From Gemmatimonadota bacterium (GTDB lineage Bacteria; Gemmatimonadota; Gemmatimonadetes; Longimicrobiales; Gaopeijiaceae): a stretch of 64,000 nucleotides of DNA. Of this stretch, positions 3,699-13,072 are shown piece after piece; within the stretch, counting starts at the first letter, position 1; each line of letters opens with the position of its first letter. Under the pieces are notes generated by a model, which saw nothing but the letters and a program-made list of their open reading frames with translations, was not told where the DNA came from and did no database searches. A program made the position numbers and the translations under genes. The DNA is taken from the NCBI GenBank assembly GCA_034521595.1, contig JAXHMG010000003.1:1408001-1472000 (forward strand), written 5' to 3'.

Positions 3699-4870
3699 GC
3701 GAAGTCTCCGTCATGACCCTCACCATAGGAGCTGTGCTCCTTCTGGGACTCGTGGCGGATGCTCTGGCGAGCCGGACCCCCCTACCCCGCGTGACCGTCC
3801 TCATGCTGCTGGGCGTCCTCGCCGGCCCCACCGGCTTCGACCTCCTCCCGCCAGGTCAGGAGACCTGGTTCACGGTGACGGCGGACATTGCCCTCGTGAT
3901 GATCGGCTTCCTCCTGGGCAGCGAGTTCACGAGGAAGCATGTGCAGGAGCTGGAAGCGGTGGTCTTCCGCATCGCCATCATGCAGTCGGTAATCACGGCA
4001 GCGATGGTGGGAGGAGGTCTCCTCGTCGTCGGCGTCCCGCCCGAGATCGCGCTTCCCCTGGGGGGGATCGCCACCGCCACCGCTCCCGCCGCCACCCTGG
4101 CGGTGGTGAAAGAGTCGGGAGCTCGCGGCCGTTTTGTGGATGTCCTCAAGGGGGTCGTTGCCGTGGACGACATCATGGGCATCGTTCTCTTCACCGTGCT
4201 GGTCGCCGGTTCGGGAATCTTGACGGGGGACGGTACCCATGCCGATGCCCTCGTCGAGGGCATACGCGAGATCGCGGGCTCCATCCTCCTGGGTCTCGCC
4301 ATCGGTCTCCCCGCTTCCCGTCTCACGGGCCGGATACGGCCGGGCGAGGCGACGCTGGAGGAGGCGCTCGGGCTGGTTCTTCTATGCGCAGGCCTCGCCG
4401 GTTGGCTCGATGTGCCGCCCATCCTCACGGCCATCGTCATGGGCGCGAGCCTGGCCAACCTCGCCCACCACCACGAGCGAGCCTTCCACGAGATCGAGAG
4501 GATCGAGTGGCCGTTTCTCGTGGTCTTCTTCGTATTGGCGGGGGCCTCACTGGAGGTCCGAGTCCTGGAGTCCGTGGGTTGGCTGGCCGCGGGCTATGTG
4601 ATCCTCCGCATCGCCGGGAAGCTTCTGGGGGCCGCGCTGGGCGCACGCTGGGCATCGATCGACGGTGTCATCGCTCGGTGGCTCGGCCTGGCTCTGCTGC
4701 CCCAGGCCGGAGTGGCACTGGGGCTCGCGCTGGCCGCGAGCCTACGGTTCCCGGAAGCCGGGACGACGGTCTTGAACGTCGTCGTGGCCGCGACCGTGCT
4801 GTTCGAGCTCGCGGGTCCCCTCCTTACCCGACTCGCCCTACAGCGGACGGGCACCATAAAACAGCCGTGA
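3695..4870 (+). CDS. Cation:proton antiporter (CPA2-like Na+/H+ exchanger)
   Basis: Many TM helices with ATAPAAT, VAVDD, FFVLAG and LLPQAGVALGL motifs; ATGA overlap with the ligase stop. Confidence 0.85.
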   Translation: MSEVSVMTLTIGAVLLLGLVADALASRTPLPRVTVLMLLGVLAGPTGFDLLPPGQETWFTVTADIALVMIGFLLGSEFTRKHVQELEAVVFRIAIMQSVITAAMVGGGLLVVGVPPEIALPLGGIATATAPAATLAVVKESGARGRFVDVLKGVVAVDDIMGIVLFTVLVAGSGILTGDGTHADALVEGIREIAGSILLGLAIGLPASRLTGRIRPGEATLEEALGLVLLCAGLAGWLDVPPILTAIVMGASLANLAHHHERAFHEIERIEWPFLVVFFVLAGASLEVRVLESVGWLAAGYVILRIAGKLLGAALGARWASIDGVIARWLGLALLPQAGVALGLALAASLRFPEAGTTVLNVVVAATVLFELAGPLLTRLALQRTGTIKQP

Positions 4871-4896
4871 CGGGCCCTTGCGGCCGTTTCCGAAGA

Positions 4897-5600
4897 CGGC
4901 CCGCTGGCGCGGGTCACCCGCTCGGGCCGCTCGGCTCAAACCCACTTTGCGCTCTCCTCCGGAGATCGCCGTGGGTTCGACGCCACGATGACTCGACCCG
5001 GCAGCTCGTAGGATCCTGCCGGTACTTTCAACGGAGGGGGTGGGATGGAGCTCCGGGCGCGCCTGCGGCGCGTCCTCGCTCGGCTCGCGGACCCCCTTGG
5101 CCGGCCCGCTCCGCGGGACACCCGCTCGGGCCGCTCGGCTCGAACCCACTTCGCGCTCTCCTGCGGAGATCGCCGTGGGTTCGACGCCACGATGACTCGA
5201 CCCGGCAGCTCGTAGGACCCTGTCGGTACTTCCAACGGAGGGGGTGGGATGAGCTCCGGGCGCGCCTGCGGCGCGTCCTCGCTCGGCTCGCGGACCCCCT
5301 CGCCGGGCCCGCTGCGCGGGACACCCCGCTGGGCCGCTCGGCTCGAACCCACTCGGCGCTCGCCTGCCGGAGATCGCCGTGCGGTTCGACGCCACGATGC
5401 ACCGACCCGGCGAGCTCGTAGACTCCTGTCGGTTACTTCCAAGCGGAGGGGTGGGATCGGAGCTCCGGGCGCGCCTGCGGCGCGTCCTCGCTCGGCTCGC
5501 GGACCCCCTTGGCGGGCCCGCTCCGCGGGACAGCCCGCTCGGGCCGCTCGGCTCGAACCCACTTCGCGCTCTCCTCTGGAGATCGCCGTGGGTTCGACAG
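4897..5600 (-). repeat. tRNA-Ser-linked tandem repeat, ~204-208 bp unit, ~3.5 copies
   Basis: CGGAGGGG(G)TGGGAT recurs at 5032, 5236, 5444 and in the tRNA itself at 5651. Units are near-identical, though the one ending near 5450 has many small indels. Confidence 0.95.
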
Positions 5601-5650
5601 TCAGGCGAGGAAGCAAATAAGCCTCTACCGACCAAAAAGGTCGGTCGAAA

Positions 5651-5734
5651 CGGAGGGGGTGGGATTCGAACCCACGTGGGCTTGCGCCCGCCGGTTTTCA
5701 AGACCGGTGCAATGAACCGCTCTGCCACCCCTCC
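5651..5734 (-). tRNA. tRNA-Ser (anticodon UGA), CCA not encoded
   Basis: GGAGGGGTGGCAGAGCGGTTCATTGCACCGGTCTTGAAAACCGGCGGGCGCAAGCCCACGTGGGTTCGAATCCCACCCCCTCCG: long variable arm, T-loop TTCGAAT, discriminator G. Confidence 0.95.
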
Positions 5735-5797
5735 AAGGTATTCGAACGATACGAAATTCTGCGGTCGAGCTGCAGGGCCGCGGCCGGGATACCACAC

Positions 5798-5829
5798 AAA
5801 AGCCTCCACGACCGGGAGGTCGTGAGGGC
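5798..5829 (-). terminator. Intrinsic terminator after the duplicated tmRNA 3' end
   Basis: Minus strand GCCCTCACGACC-TCCC-GGTCGTGGAGGC followed by TTTT. Confidence 0.65.
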
Positions 5830-5997
5830 ATGGAGGCGGCGGGCGTCCGCTGCGGTCGGCGCTTTGCGCCGATCCTTGCAGGTCTCGCGGGGAAACCGTA
5901 CCGGGCCATGCGGCGAACACCCGCTTGGCCGCTCGGTTCAAACGCCGCGTTCGGGGCGCTACGCGCCCCCGTGGGTTCGCCTCCCGCTGCCTCCATG
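5829..5997 (-). repeat. tmRNA-linked repeat unit with direct and inverted copies of the tmRNA 3' end
   Basis: CATGGAGGCGGCGGG at 5829 is identical to the tmRNA end at 6040 (211 bp apart); the inverted copy GTGGGTTCGCCTCCCGCTGCCTCCATG is at 5971-5997. Confidence 0.85.
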
Positions 5998-6006
5998 GGA
6001 CAAACG

Positions 6007-6040
6007 AAAAGGGCCCTACCGGATCTGACCGATAGGGCCC
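6007..6040 (-). terminator. Intrinsic terminator of ssrA
   Basis: Minus strand GGGCCCTATCGG...CCGGTAGGGCCC followed by TTTT, directly after the tmRNA 3' end. Confidence 0.8.
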
Positions 6041-6041
6041 A

Positions 6042-6394
6042 TGGAGGCGGCGGGAGTCGAACCCGCGTCCGCGAATGAATTCAGTAGAGCCTCTACGTGC
6101 GTAGAACGCTGAAAAATCTCGTCACGGCGAGCCAGCGATCAACTCGATCCGCGACCAGCCACCTTGAATCTCGTCTACCGGCTCGGCGGCACAACCGGAA
6201 GACCAGCCCGACTTATCGTCGCCTCAAGGAACGCCTCGGGCGGGCGATCCAGGAGACGGGCTACGTAAGGGTTACTTACGCGGCCAGCGCCATGTTGTTG
6301 TTGGCAGCTATTGAATTTCCCGAGTATTTACGAGGATCAGGACCTCGGCACGCAACTCCACCTTCACCAAACACGTCGAAGCCGTGTCGCCCCC
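6042..6394 (-). ncRNA. ssrA: tmRNA, tag (A)ANNNMALAA
   Basis: 5' GGGGGCG pairs with 3' CGCCTCC-A including a G3.U pair; T-arm GGTTCGACTCC; resume context ATAGCT-GCC AAC AAC AAC ATG GCG CTG GCC GCG TAA. Confidence 0.95.
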
Positions 6395-9157: not shown

Positions 9158-11074
9158 TCAGTCCGAAGGCACGGACCGACCGTCCTCGCGCCGTAGCGTG
9201 ACCCCTCGCGTGTCGAGGTAGTTCAGAAGGGGGATGAGGTGTTTGCGCGTGACGTCGAGGGCATCCCTGAAGTCGGCGGGCCCCAACCCGACACGCCCCC
9301 CCAGCGACGCACGCACACGTTCCTCGGCCGCCCGAAGGTGATCCCGTCCCACATAGAGGTCGTCGGCGACCTGCTCGACCACCCCGCGCTCCTCGAGCCA
9401 GTAGAGGAGCGACCAGAGGTCCGGCCGGCCGGCGAGCGGCTCGGGTAGCTCGTCCACGAACGGGGGGGCCAATCCGCCGGCCAGGAGGACTTCCGTCAAC
9501 CGCTTCGACGCCTCCTCCTGATCCGTCGTGAGACGGGGCTCGTGCGCGGGATCGCGCACACCGCCGTCCTCCGAAACCAGCGCCTGATCCTGCACGAGCT
9601 CTCGTATGACGGCGTCCGCCAGGCCGGAGGGCGCCCACGAAGGGAGCGCCGAACGGACATGCGCCAGAGGAATGGCACGCCGCACGGGATCCCGGGCATG
9701 TTCGTTCGTCACCGCGTCGACCAGCAGGCCGCGCGCCCGCCCCCAGATCTCCGGGGCGAAGACCCGCTCTCCACTCCGCCTCACCTCGATGTCGGCGGCC
9801 ACCGGCTCGGCCAGGAGCCGCTCGGCGCCGGCCGCCGAAATCCCCGTGCGCACCGGCAGCGCAGCGATCTCGAGCCCCATCCACCCGCTCAGCTCGAGCA
9901 GCGCGACCAAGGTCTCGCCGTCACCCCCGTCCAGCACGCGGGCGAGTCGGGCACGGACGCTCTCGTCCAAACGGTTGCGCTTCGGTGGGTGCGTCTCGGC
10001 GACGATCCCCCCGGCGATGGTCGTCACGGGCGAATAGGACCGCAACACGAGCCGGTCTCTGCCGCGCACCACGAGCGGCTCCTCGAGTCGGAGCTGCACC
10101 CAACCCACGTCGCCGGACGCCAACATCTCGACTTCGTCGAGCAGCACGCACCGAGCCTGGACCTGGGCCGTGCCGTGGTGGACATGCACCCGCTGATTGT
10201 GCTGGATGCTCCAGTCCGAGTCCGAGAGCACCTGAATCCGTACGGTAAGCATGTGGCTGGTCGACCACGCCGGGGACGCGACCAACGTGGCCCCCCTGTC
10301 GACCACGTCACGGTCGGCGCCGCTCCCGGCGAGCGCCACGGCCGTTCGCTCCCCGGCCCGGGCCACGTCGGCGCCGCGCCCGTGGACCTGCAAGCTCCGC
10401 ACCCGGGCCTCGAGGTCCCGAGGCAGGATACGAACGCGGTCGCCGGTCCGCAGGGATCCGCTCCAGAGAGTGCCGGTGACCACGGTCCCCGTGCCCTGGA
10501 TCGTGAATACCCGATCGAGCGGCAGGCGCGCCAGGTCGACCTCGTCCCGCGCGGGAACCTTCGAGGCGGCTTCGGCCAACGCGTGCACGAGCTCTTCCAC
10601 TCCGGTTCCGTCCACCGCCGAGGTGGGCACCCGAGGCGCGTCCCCGTACGGTGTACCCGCGAGCAGATCGTCGACGTCGGCTTCGACCAGCTCCATCCAC
10701 TCCGCGTCGACCAGGTCCCGCTTGGTGTACGCCACGACCACTTCGGGCACGCCCAAGAGCCGCACGATCCCGAGGTGCTCTCGCGTCTGCGGCATCACGC
10801 CCTCGTCCGCGGCGACCACGAGCAGCACCACGTCCATCCCGGCCGCTCCCGCGAGCATCGAACGCACGAAAGCCTCGTGCCCCGGCACGTCGACCACCCC
10901 GAAGCGCGGGAGATCGTCGCGACTCAACTCCGCGAACCCCAGCTCGATCGTGATCCCGCGGGCTTGCTCCTCCTTCAGGCGATCGGTGTCGACACCGGTC
11001 AGCGCGCGCACGAGCGCGGTCTTCCCGTGATCGATGTGCCCGGCGGTTCCGAGGATGAACGGATGCGTGCTCAC
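9158..11074 (-). CDS. selB: Selenocysteine-specific elongation factor
   Basis: [27 protein letters not shown]-terminal winged helix [16 protein letters not shown] 11074 overlaps the recO stop. Confidence 0.95.
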
Positions 11075-11832
11075 GAAGGCTCGTCCGCGTCCGGAGGAAG
11101 TCGGTCCGCGAGGAACCGGAGGGCCTTCAGCGGCTTCTGTGCCACGTGGTGCGCTACGAAGTCCGAGATCAGCGCGAGATGGCGTCGCGGGTGCGTGAGC
11201 GCGCCCGGCGGGCTTCCCTCGAGAAGCGCCCGGACCTGGCCACGGGCGATAGGCCCGAGGCGCGGACCCGTGGGCCCATGCCCGCATGCCTCACAGCGCA
11301 GCCCCCCGGCTTCGAAGTCGAACCGACCGACCTCATCGTCGCCCAGGGACCGCCCGCAGTGCACGCACGCCGTCAGCTCCGGCTCGAAGCCGAACACGCT
11401 CGTCACCCGCCACAGCGCCGACAGAATCGCCGGCGGCAACTCGGAAGCCACCGCGGCGTCGAGGCGGTCGAGCTCCTCGTTCAACCGCTCGAAAAGCATC
11501 GGTTGCGGTTCCTGCTCGGCGTGCGAGAGCACCAACTCGACCAAGCAGGCCGCCCCGGCGAACCGCAGCACGTGGAGAGGAATCCGCGGTCTGGCTCGCT
11601 CGCTCGAGAAGTCCTTCATGGTGTGGAGGTCGCCGTACGGCTTCACATAGGCCACCAAGTCGCCCGAGGAGAAGCTGCTCACCGCGGACCCTCCCTTGCC
11701 ACTCCGGCCGCGCACGCCCCGGGCCACGACGCTCAAGAGCCCGTGGTCCAGCGTGTAGAACCGCAAGATGCGGCTGGTGTCCCCGTAGTCATAGCCCCGC
11801 AGGAGCACGGCTCGAGTGCTGACGGGCGCCAC
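11071..11832 (-). CDS. recO: DNA repair protein RecO
   Basis: YGDTSRILRFYT..HG..VARGVR, Zn motif CVHCG...CEAC; GTG start at 11832. Confidence 0.9.
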   Translation of the reverse strand: MAPVSTRAVLLRGYDYGDTSRILRFYTLDHGLLSVVARGVRGRSGKGGSAVSSFSSGDLVAYVKPYGDLHTMKDFSSERARPRIPLHVLRFAGAACLVELVLSHAEQEPQPMLFERLNEELDRLDAAVASELPPAILSALWRVTSVFGFEPELTACVHCGRSLGDDEVGRFDFEAGGLRCEACGHGPTGPRLGPIARGQVRALLEGSPPGALTHPRRHLALISDFVAHHVAQKPLKALRFLADRLPPDADEPS

Positions 11833-11833
11833 G

Positions 11834-13072
11834 TCAGGAAACCGCCTCCAGCTGTCGGAGTAGCTCGGCCCTTCGGGCCTCGTACGCGGCACGCTCCTCG
11901 TCGGTCGGCGAGGCGTTCGACTCGAAGGCTTCGTCGAGCCGGGCGATCTCCACGAGGACGGCCTGACGGTTGGCCCCGGCCGCCCCCACCGACCCGGCAG
12001 AGGGGCTCCCGCCCACGCCCGCGGCAGCGGGCGCCTGACGGCCCTTCAGCACGAAGAGCGCCGCGACCGCCAAAGCGAGTCCCACCAGGACCGTGACCCA
12101 CTCCATCGGAATCTCCCCTTCCTGCTCCGTCTCGATGACGGAGACCCGGCCCGGACCGACGTCGATCCCCGAGTACCGCCGGTACGTGGATCCCTGCTCC
12201 AGCTCGACCCGGCCCTGCAGCTCGAGCCCTTCCACGCCGACCCGGGGCGAAGGCTCCCGAACGAGGAGGTCGAACGCTTCGGTATTGCCCGGTGTGGGCA
12301 CGGGACCGAACGGGTCGTCGACGGCGTAGCGGAACACGAAAACACGCTCGCCCGGGGAGATCGCGGCCCGAACCGAGACGACGCCGTCCCGGAACAGCGT
12401 GCCGTCGATGGCGAACTCGCCCTGCCCCGAGCTGAAGTCCCGTGCGCCCTCGGGAAGCGGATAGCGCCACACCGCTCCCCCCTCCGGTGCGATGAGGGTC
12501 CGGTCCCCGTCGTTGCGGAGCTGGAAGATGTCGGTCACCCGCCACTCCTCACCGTTCGGCTCGAAGAAGATGTTGCGCGCCTGGAGGGGGATGTCGGCGC
12601 CTCCTTCCGCGACCATGGCGGTATCGTACGCCTGAATGCGGTAGATGGAGTCGAGCTGGGTGGTCGTCGCGAGCGCCGACCCGAAATAAAGGATCCCGGC
12701 GTGCCGTACCGAAGCGAAATAGAAGCGCTCCGCCGCGCGGTCCGGTGGCGAAGGAAGCCGGAACGAGAAGCTTCCCTCTTCTGAGACCCCGACGGAATCG
12801 ATCTCCCCTTGCTCGATGTCGGTGACCTGGTGCAGGACGACGGTCCCCGTGTCGAGAGGCGCGTCGCCGACCAACACTTCGCCGCGCAACAGAGGCTGCT
12901 CGGGTTCTTGCGCATGACCGTCGGACGCGCTTGCGAGGAAGGCGAGCGCCGCGGTCGCGACGAGGGCGTGGAGAGACCGGATCGAGCGCACGGCGGTGCT
13001 CCGATGGCGCCCCGAAAGGGCGGAAGTCGTGAGGGATGAAGAAGATCGGACGGGGCGTTCGGCCTGGGCCAT
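11834..13072 (-). CDS. Hypothetical exported protein with C-terminal TM anchor and short coiled coil
   Basis: Signal peptide, beta-rich body, TM segment, then EIARLDEAFE...YEARRAELL. Confidence 0.65.
   Translation of the reverse strand: MAQAERPVRSSSSLTTSALSGRHRSTAVRSIRSLHALVATAALAFLASASDGHAQEPEQPLLRGEVLVGDAPLDTGTVVLHQVTDIEQGEIDSVGVSEEGSFSFRLPSPPDRAAERFYFASVRHAGILYFGSALATTTQLDSIYRIQAYDTAMVAEGGADIPLQARNIFFEPNGEEWRVTDIFQLRNDGDRTLIAPEGGAVWRYPLPEGARDFSSGQGEFAIDGTLFRDGVVSVRAAISPGERVFVFRYAVDDPFGPVPTPGNTEAFDLLVREPSPRVGVEGLELQGRVELEQGSTYRRYSGIDVGPGRVSVIETEQEGEIPMEWVTVLVGLALAVAALFVLKGRQAPAAAGVGGSPSAGSVGAAGANRQAVLVEIARLDEAFESNASPTDEERAAYEARRAELLRQLEAVS

Follow-up and report, generated by a model that had tools for sequence, protein, structure and literature searches.

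The 64,000-nucleotide window analysed here (positions 1,408,001 to 1,472,000 of contig JAXHMG010000003.1 of a Gemmatimonadota bacterium) contains a transfer-messenger RNA (tmRNA) gene and, adjacent to it, a tRNA-Ser(UGA) gene, both of them complete and each followed on the same strand by short repeat units that carry pieces of the gene's own 3′ end. Three full units and one truncated unit of about 204 nt (the Ser units, U1 to U4) lie behind tRNA-Ser, and a single unit of 170 nt (the TM unit) lies behind tmRNA; the first unit begins 53 nt after tRNA-Ser and 43 nt after tmRNA, respectively. The Ser units form a tandem array at 4898-5598 with a period of 204, 3.4 copies and 91% matches according to Tandem Repeats Finder. 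The copied T-arm is interrupted within its T-loop by a GC-rich insert, a design otherwise seen in the RtT repeats of Enterobacterales (Rfam RF00391), and the balance of evidence tips slightly toward the units of the window being either remote members of the RtT class or near analogues of it. All unit and gene coordinates (Table 1) are read on the minus strand.

Each Ser unit consists of an inverted copy of the 5′ half of the T-arm, an inner hairpin of 25 nt, a direct copy of the same T-arm half down to TTCGA, an insert of 92-95 nt and the last 14-15 nt of the tRNA. The inverted arm of U1 and U3 matches the T-arm 5′ half of tRNA-Ser exactly over 11 nt, and the stem between inverted and direct arms is 10 bp long in the Ser units and weaker in the TM unit, which also has a hairpin between its inverted copy and its direct T-arm half. 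One C has been lost from the 3′ copy of U1, and the direct half of U4 and of the TM unit reads TTTGA instead of TTCGA. The 3′ copy of the TM unit and the genuine 3′ end of tmRNA are 211 nt apart. The initial annotation of this DNA had described an inverted T-arm copy, which is correct for both loci except that on the tmRNA side the inverted copy (30 nt, 90%) covers about 28-30 nt of the 3′ end and thus reaches beyond the T-arm. This longer inverted copy also pairs with the 3′ copy of its own unit (15 nt, 93%), whereas the complement to the 3′ copy in the Ser units is one 7-nt piece (AGGGGGT) placed inside the insert. The 3′ copies have no CCA because the tRNA-Ser and tmRNA genes do not encode it; gene and copy agree for one to two bases past the mature 3′ end, and therefore the copies were made from DNA or a precursor, not from mature RNA. 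The proposal that the T-loop is split at one fixed place was borne out by comparison of the junctions: the split follows a TTCGA-type pentamer at the identical point in all nine units compared (window and RtT), with a left junction ...GGTTCGA (TTTGA in the TM unit) and a right junction AT(C)CC or its tmRNA equivalent.

Table 1. Features of the tmRNA and tRNA-Ser loci in window coordinates
Feature	Position	Strand	Remarks
tmRNA gene, tag ANNNMALAA, no encoded CCA	6042..6394	-	ARAGORN; Rfam RF00023, 173.4 bits
Terminator-like hairpin and T-run between tmRNA and TM unit	6011..6040	-	
TM unit, overall (170 nt)	5829..5998	-	
TM unit, inverted copy of tmRNA 3′ end (acceptor 3′ strand and T-arm)	5971..5998	-	30 nt, 90%; exact-match table
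TM unit, direct T-arm 5′ half, degenerate, ending TTTGA	5938..5948	-	Aligned to RtT T-arm half by model R1
TM unit, GC-rich insert of 91 nt, start ACCGAGCGGCC	5847..5937	-	
TM unit, copy of tmRNA 3′ end from T-loop onward	5831..5846	-	19 nt, 95%
Second terminator-like hairpin, immediately past TM unit	5803..5825	-	
tRNA-Ser(TGA) gene, no encoded CCA	5650..5735	-	ARAGORN and Rfam
Ser unit U1	5444..5597	-	Inverted arm, hairpin, direct T-arm half, 95-nt insert, 3′ copy
U1 modules	inverted arm 5597-5588; direct T-arm half 5562-5553; insert 5552-5458 (95 nt); 3′ copy 5457-5444	-	
Ser unit U2	5236..5389	-	92-nt insert; best match of RtT-core model R1
U2 modules	inverted arm 5389-5379; direct half 5352-5343; insert 92 nt; 3′ copy 5250-5236	-	
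Ser unit U3	5032..5184	-	93-nt insert; Rfam RtT 14.6 bits at 5049-5098
U3 modules	inverted arm 5184-5175; direct half 5149-5140; insert 93 nt; 3′ copy 5046-5032	-	
Ser unit U4	4896..4980	-	Truncated inside insert, near 4896
U4 modules	inverted arm 4980-4971; direct half 4945-4936; then truncated near 4896	-	

The units behind the two genes constitute one family whose arms match the neighbouring gene, as the initial annotation had supposed, by the combined results of repeat comparison, motif search, shuffle tests and the exact-match table. The motif CCGAGCGGCC-N1-2-AGCGGG occurs five times in the 64 kb, always inside a unit, a result that none of 100 shuffles reached, and the motif search located no further unit copies in the 64 kb beyond the two adjacent loci. 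When the whole insert of the TM unit was aligned with that of the Ser units, the score was reached by none of 2000 dinucleotide shuffles, and the 5′ parts (inverted arm to T-arm half) were aligned as well by 6 of 2000 shuffles. With the first 22 nt of the inserts removed, however, 394 of 2000 shuffles were as good, and therefore the significance of the insert alignment rests on the insert start. Accordingly, the suggested homology of the inserts stands for the inserts taken whole and is not significant past their first 22 nt in this test; within the window, homology of the TM and Ser units is secure for no more than the stretch that begins with the inverted arm and closes with the insert start. 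Among the Ser units, the cores of U1 to U3 are 91-96% alike and the spacers of U2 to U4 are 84-94% identical among themselves, whereas the spacer before U1 is only about 50% identical to the others, a pattern consistent with one original unit and a later tandem duplication in which the core took its downstream spacer along. Folding z-scores are unremarkable for the Ser units.

Two observations concern the insert itself. The Ser insert (U3 5049-5139, and the same stretch in U1 and U2) looks internally duplicated, its start GTGGGTTCGA-GCCGAGCGG being echoed in mid-insert by GGGGGTCCGCGA-GCCGAGCGA; the Rfam RtT model and the RtT model constructed for this study both align the RtT T-arm half to this second, degenerate copy. 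Derivation of the insert from the 5′ half of the tRNA (D-arm) was considered and rejected, as 617 and 831 of 1000 shuffles did as well in local alignment to tRNA-Ser.

The tyrT RtT repeats of E. coli have been known for decades. In E. coli K-12 they have a period of 178 and 3.1 copies, and match RF00391 four times with 133-137.5 bits. The order of a tyrT unit is an inverted T-stem 3′ strand with the start of the acceptor, an inverted T-arm 5′ half, a loop of 4-5 nt, a direct half ending in TTCGA, a GC-rich insert of 68 nt and the last 18-19 nt of tRNA-Tyr. Above the gathering score, RtT is also found behind tRNA-Pro(CGG) of K. aerogenes (107.1 bits) and E. coli (100.4 bits) and behind tRNA-Lys(UUU) of Providencia (97.5 bits), and for Tyr, Pro (proK-type) and Lys alike the arms are cognate to the upstream tRNA of that unit. 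The annotated E. coli gene rttR (b4425) occupies 1567-1737 of the tyrT locus sequence used for comparison, starting 8 nt downstream of tyrV and stopping at the final base of the 3′ copy in the first unit; by analogy with this closest known relative, the earlier suggestion that the units of the window may be a source of processed small RNAs is a fitting one. Later papers that cite Bosl and Kersten (1991) describe rtT RNA as one repeat unit processed from the tyrT transcript. A possible modulation of the stringent response by rtT RNA is also mentioned in later papers, and PMC7542023 still calls the exact function of RtT unknown. Among high-GC Gammaproteobacteria, RtT is reported to be annotated in Thioalkalivibrio (PMC8092127). 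Covariation support for the RtT helices is reported in PMC8250186 and in bioRxiv 10.1101/2020.02.04.933952; this signal may partly reflect arms that were templated from different tRNAs. In the Providencia alcalifaciens record, an almost full-length copy of tRNA-Lys (626-721) that was not called by ARAGORN lies between two tRNA-Lys genes. Past its T-loop comes a stretch that can be aligned with the 3′ half of the RtT(Lys) insert, and the copy closes with a 3′ end that has diverged. Judging from this arrangement, the copy seems intermediate between a tRNA gene duplicate and an RtT unit.

RtT and the units of the window have five modules in one order, namely an inverted 3′-end piece, an inverted T-arm 5′ half, a direct half ending in TTCGA, an insert and a direct 3′ end from ATCC, which was found in all five bona fide RtT units examined and from which the Ser units depart solely in the position of the inverted 3′-end piece. 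Both are located directly 3′ of a tRNA or tmRNA gene on the same strand, and they are tandem at tyrT as at tRNA-Ser. The insert start NNCGAGCG directly follows TTCGA in four of five RtT units and four of four window units, and an insert start ..CGAGCG and GC hairpins are common to both. The 3′ copy, taken from T-loop position 58/59, is 14-16 nt long in the window and 18-19 nt including CCA in RtT; the arm stem is 10 bp in the Ser units and 7-8 bp in two RtT units (Ec_Tyr_a and Ka_Pro); the insert of 91-95 nt appears to hold an extra hairpin module compared with the 66-68 nt of RtT; and the 25-nt inner hairpin separates the arms of the Ser units where tyrT RtT has its 4-5-nt loop. The partner genes in the window are tRNA-Ser and tmRNA without encoded CCA, as opposed to tRNA-Tyr, tRNA-Pro and tRNA-Lys, and the host has about 68% GC and is not enterobacterial by sequence.

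Several results weigh against assignment to the RtT class. The RF00391 gathering score of 45 bits is not reached by any unit of the window (best 14.6 bits, E=2 over all families), and RtT is neither among five Rfam matches in the TM unit nor among 17 chance-level permissive matches in the 1401-nt region (E≤10). An nhmmer profile of seven RtT units found nothing significant in the window, its best matches at the units having E=12, and when the E. coli insert was aligned locally with those of the Ser and TM units, 1345 and 1998 of 5000 shuffles did as well. The 5′ copy of the 3′ end that closes RtT and the TM unit (15 nt, 93%, in the latter) is absent from the Ser units, RNAalifold gave no covariation support for four window units (term +2.94), a strong terminator separates tmRNA from the TM unit, and the relatives in other organisms are known as translated open reading frames (ORFs) anchored on a translated tRNA-Ser, which makes them a sample of this one tRNA. 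A covariance model of the RtT core was built from seven sequences with 19 pairs, extending from the T-arm half to the insert end without the 3′ copy (model R1), and an unfiltered search of all 64 kb with it at E≤10 gave 49 matches. At the units it scores 10.9-16.9 bits, which does not exceed background: the best matches on 90.9 kb of unrelated high-GC loci scored 15.5, 14.9 and 14.4 bits.

The placement of these matches is another matter. U2 ranked first (16.9 bits), U3 third (16.3), U1 fourth (15.7), the TM unit sixth (12.4) and U4 eighth (10.9), such that five of the top eight matches are the five units, in the right orientation, on about 0.3% of the searched strands. This placement is not expected by chance, with the caveat that the three full Ser units are mutual copies and count once. 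In the R1 alignment of the TM unit, the T-arm half and the ..CGAGCG..AAGCG hairpin fall into register, and when a 221-nt stretch of U3 was compared with 4227 Rfam families, RtT was the sole match at E≤10 (model positions 35-91, no non-standard pair). The second-best R1 match (16.4 bits, window 11863-11926, minus strand) falls where the RecO ORF overlaps with its upstream neighbour; no tRNA is close by, and the match was taken as background. The units are therefore filed as RtT-class by architecture; their sequence homology to RtT is probable, not proven. The initial annotation had recognised no described family. At curated thresholds, Rfam matched tRNA and tmRNA alone in the window, and the units are below the RF00391 gathering score as noted, but their architecture is that of RtT: the tyrT repeats and RtT behind tRNA-Pro and tRNA-Lys share the split-T-loop design with cognate arms, and therefore the claim of an undescribed design fails.

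Relatives in other organisms were evaluated among 13 ORF proteins (three from a first search and ten from a second) by a back-translation motif map, which was used instead of raw tblastn of the ORF proteins on the region because the latter was too noisy. Unit motifs are present downstream of tRNA-Ser in six of the 13 (P0001, P0002, P0003, P0005, P0007 and P0009), and so ORFs called across tRNA-Ser show, as far as translated frames can, the same unit in at least six other organisms. The T-arm half and the split 3′ copy occur together in three (P0003, P0005, P0009), and seven are without unit motifs by the map, P0010 being too short to tell and P0012 a near-match by eye. The tRNA in P0007 and P0009 reads TRVR instead of the TWVR of the window, which corresponds to a T-stem GCGGG/CCCGC instead of GTGGG/CCCAC, and the direct arm of their units reads KRVR or ERVR; the 3′ copy of P0009 is SRPLR instead of SHPLR, and the inverted arm of P0007 is FEPA. 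T-stem and unit arms thus change together, and therefore the arms follow the cognate tRNA across species. Core motifs persist in the ORF-derived relatives, in contrast to the spacer behind the tRNA, which measures about 51-54 nt up to the inverted arm in five relatives, with no conservation of sequence. The Ser-linked insert of P0009 carries an FPRD reading (TTCCCGCGAGAC-like) that is typical of the TM unit in the window, which links the Ser and TM insert types beyond the first 22 nt. In P0003 the split copy is only 15 nt behind the tRNA, with a left flank of 25 nt and no inverted arm. Mutations of the arm-hairpin stem that give G-T pairs on the tRNA-sense strand occur in U4, in the TM unit and, by back-translation, in P0009; these three pair-preserving changes hint weakly at the sense strand as the one that folds.

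Searches not anchored on tRNA-Ser ORFs added no confirmed relatives. None of 46 candidates scored in a tmRNA-anchored ORF search for relatives of the TM unit. A context-free insert pattern that required no T-loop matched 54 loci, each once, in scattered high-GC taxa among 185,579 species genomes (a collection without the window's genome), and none of the 54 was confirmed by an nhmmer unit profile (best E=0.02). In a plasmid collection, 114 records matched, none of them covering 80% of the query, and all matches listed were on the tRNA-Ser gene. Two of the ORF proteins have other features at tRNA-Ser. Residues 7-36 of P0001 contain a split Ser-type 3′ copy (QSHPLR) after an insert-like reading, about 130 codons upstream of its tRNA-Ser; a unit may thus also precede tRNA-Ser in that organism, as the TM unit does in the window. 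In P0014 the tRNA-Ser translation runs into a phage-integrase fragment (PF00589), an ordinary island at tRNA-Ser that is unrelated to the units.

The Ser units are predicted to be transcribed as the 3′ trailer of tRNA-Ser, because no terminator-like site was found between the gene and U1. By analogy with E. coli, tRNA end-processing enzymes might release each unit as a stable RNA of about 205 nt, cut at tRNA-like ends, because a helix closes the unit's end, which mimics the tRNA 3′ strand; rtT RNA in E. coli is bounded in the way that is proposed for the Ser units. The TM unit lies behind the strong terminator of tmRNA, and its RNA would be made only on read-through. A function of the Ser and TM units as processed trailer RNA may be inferred from the same analogy. 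Templating from the adjacent gene would keep the arms cognate, for which the candidate routes are partial gene duplication and then gene conversion or unequal crossing-over, and the 3.4-fold array would be a secondary tandem amplification. The Providencia tRNA-Lys copy and the P0003 flank without an inverted arm suggest that units start as partial or whole duplicates of tRNA genes that acquire the insert; it might come from an insertion activity specific for T-loops, the idea of the initial annotation, or from recombination among related units. The initial annotation had proposed that the elements regenerate the 3′ ends of their target genes, but both genes are intact and upstream of the units, one of which is past a terminator, and therefore nothing is regenerated.

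The position of the split has a counterpart in RNA structure. The bulge right after the five-nucleotide T-loop motif is described in PMC2615604 as an insertion point for extra helices, and the split of the units falls at the same place, right after the five-nucleotide motif. In the units, however, the predicted pairing partner of the T-arm 5′ half is the inverted arm upstream of it (10 bp), not the 3′ copy; therefore, a true T-loop fold is doubtful. An extension of the RtT-class assignment, in which RtT would be one ancient cross-phylum family whose conserved, structured insert follows T-loop position 58 within a palindrome copied from the upstream gene's 3′ end, is possible but doubtful. If it is true, there should be either an undiscovered copying or insertion mechanism that reads the target T-arm or a general RNA function tied to tRNA 3′-end processing, and the TM unit would be the first tmRNA-linked example in a family with tRNA-Tyr, tRNA-Pro, tRNA-Lys, tRNA-Ser and tmRNA as partners.

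Three rival explanations were considered. The units could derive from small non-autonomous mobile DNA that inserts after TTCGA in T-loops and is moved in trans by a recombinase encoded elsewhere, with survival only of insertions into redundant partial gene copies. This is unlikely, although it would account for a single insert family whose T-loop position does not vary among copies of five tRNA-like genes (Ser and tmRNA; Tyr, Pro and Lys), for its three different contexts including that of P0003, and for the 3′ half of an RtT insert in the T-loop of the near-full-length Providencia tRNA-Lys copy; according to PMC7542023, one RtT copy was gained and another replaced by a tRNA between a pair of Erwinia strains. 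It could also be the origin of RtT itself and is then compatible with the RtT-class assignment. A set of 233 ORFs of at least 100 amino acids was compiled, 78 of which pass a codon-position GC filter, and 13 + 38 translations chosen from it (including two loci given twice) were scanned across the window; no integrase, transposase or HUH domain was found among them, nor any domain of the PF00589 type. There are no copies outside the two loci in the 64 kb, no empty site was seen, the sequence as read shows neither terminal inverted repeats nor a clear target duplication of the insert, and the matches of the strict insert pattern in the species genomes are at chance level. The tRNA-unit spacer of about 51-54 nt in five relatives and in the window suggests inheritance in place, behind the same tRNA. 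The miniature inverted-repeat transposable element mobilised by an integrase or HUH enzyme that the initial annotation had envisaged thus finds no backing, and mobility of the units is unevidenced. REP/BIME and IS200/IS605-derived palindromic elements are short, GC-rich, hairpin-forming, gene-free and intergenic, and are moved by HUH transposases. The units share this build except that they are not dispersed but amount, within the 64 kb, to five copies at two adjacent loci, have arms copied from the neighbouring gene and are in a window without a HUH transposase.

Even less probable is a neutral origin, in which template-switching at the T-arm palindrome and local duplication would have generated units that gene conversion keeps alike and that have no function as RNA or mobile DNA. 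The tRNA-Ser gene does hold a palindrome, CCCACGTGGG, that is extended in the unit, single copies have indels and base changes in their arms (U1, U2, U4), and the window copies are without covariation support, but the relatives keep the core motifs while the spacer behind the tRNA diverges, the five-module design and the insert start recur in Enterobacterales behind three other tRNAs, and the T-loop is split at one exact position in all nine units. Very little credence can be given to the idea that the units are island relics, with the 3′ copies being displaced tDNA fragments (attR type) left by tyrosine integrases, the remainder of each unit an island attachment arm, and the array a product of repeated integration. 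According to PMC4383910, the 3′ ends of tRNA and tmRNA genes are the usual targets of islands and a displaced fragment marks the far end; phage Ms6 recombines in the T-loop of tRNA-Ala (PMC1762012), each tmRNA 3′-end copy has its own terminator after it, and P0014 has an integrase fragment directly behind tRNA-Ser in another organism. Like the island att-site fragments of Islander, for which tmRNA and tRNA-Ser are typical targets, the units have a copied gene 3′ end that follows the gene itself, which is intact. Unlike them, the copies in the window are split in the T-loop, are accompanied by an inverted copy and conserved together with the insert, and have no island or integrase in the window; the gap from gene to fragment is only 53-211 nt, and the "island" would measure about 200 bp. 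Integration would leave unexplained the inverted arm, the T-arm 5′ half that stands 91-95 nt from the 3′ copy, and why the arms track the T-stem variant of the tRNA in other species, and the same design in E. coli belongs to an expressed, annotated RNA. The divergent spacer of U1, set against the similarity of the other spacers and of the cores, fits tandem duplication better than repeated integration.

In a literature search with the original tyrT and rtT papers outside its scope, no description was found of the split-T-loop, cognate-arm design of RtT or of RtT-like units behind tmRNA. What appears to be new is the occurrence of RtT-design units in a distant high-GC genome, beyond Gammaproteobacteria; the partnership with tRNA-Ser and tmRNA, including a tmRNA-linked copy; the enlarged insert; and an explicit interpretation of RtT as a palindrome that is templated by its target and split in the T-loop. 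An enterobacterial curiosity becomes a candidate general class, which raises the questions of what copies the neighbour's 3′ end both ways, why the split comes after TTCGA, and whether tRNA-processing enzymes excise the units.

The neighbouring ORFs have housekeeping functions (an ADP-forming acyl-CoA synthetase, Dus, components of the phosphotransferase system, SelB, RecO, MetK and others), and a Na/H exchanger gene among them is convergent with the array. The SelB-type selenocysteine elongation factor is encoded at 9158-11287 (minus strand), 3.4 kb from tRNA-Ser, and no tRNA-Sec was called in the window. A stop-free frame of 400 codons (window 4841-6040, minus strand) spans the TM unit, tRNA-Ser and all Ser units; a protein-coding reading of it was rejected, since it matches no Pfam family and failed the codon-position GC filter. 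A 253-amino-acid frame of the unit array had no match among 1.84 billion representatives. Public protein sets contain similar frames from other organisms as "hypothetical protein" (P0001, P0002, P0011, P0012), and a practical consequence is that gene callers translate unit arrays into "hypothetical proteins" of the kind that P0001 and others exemplify.

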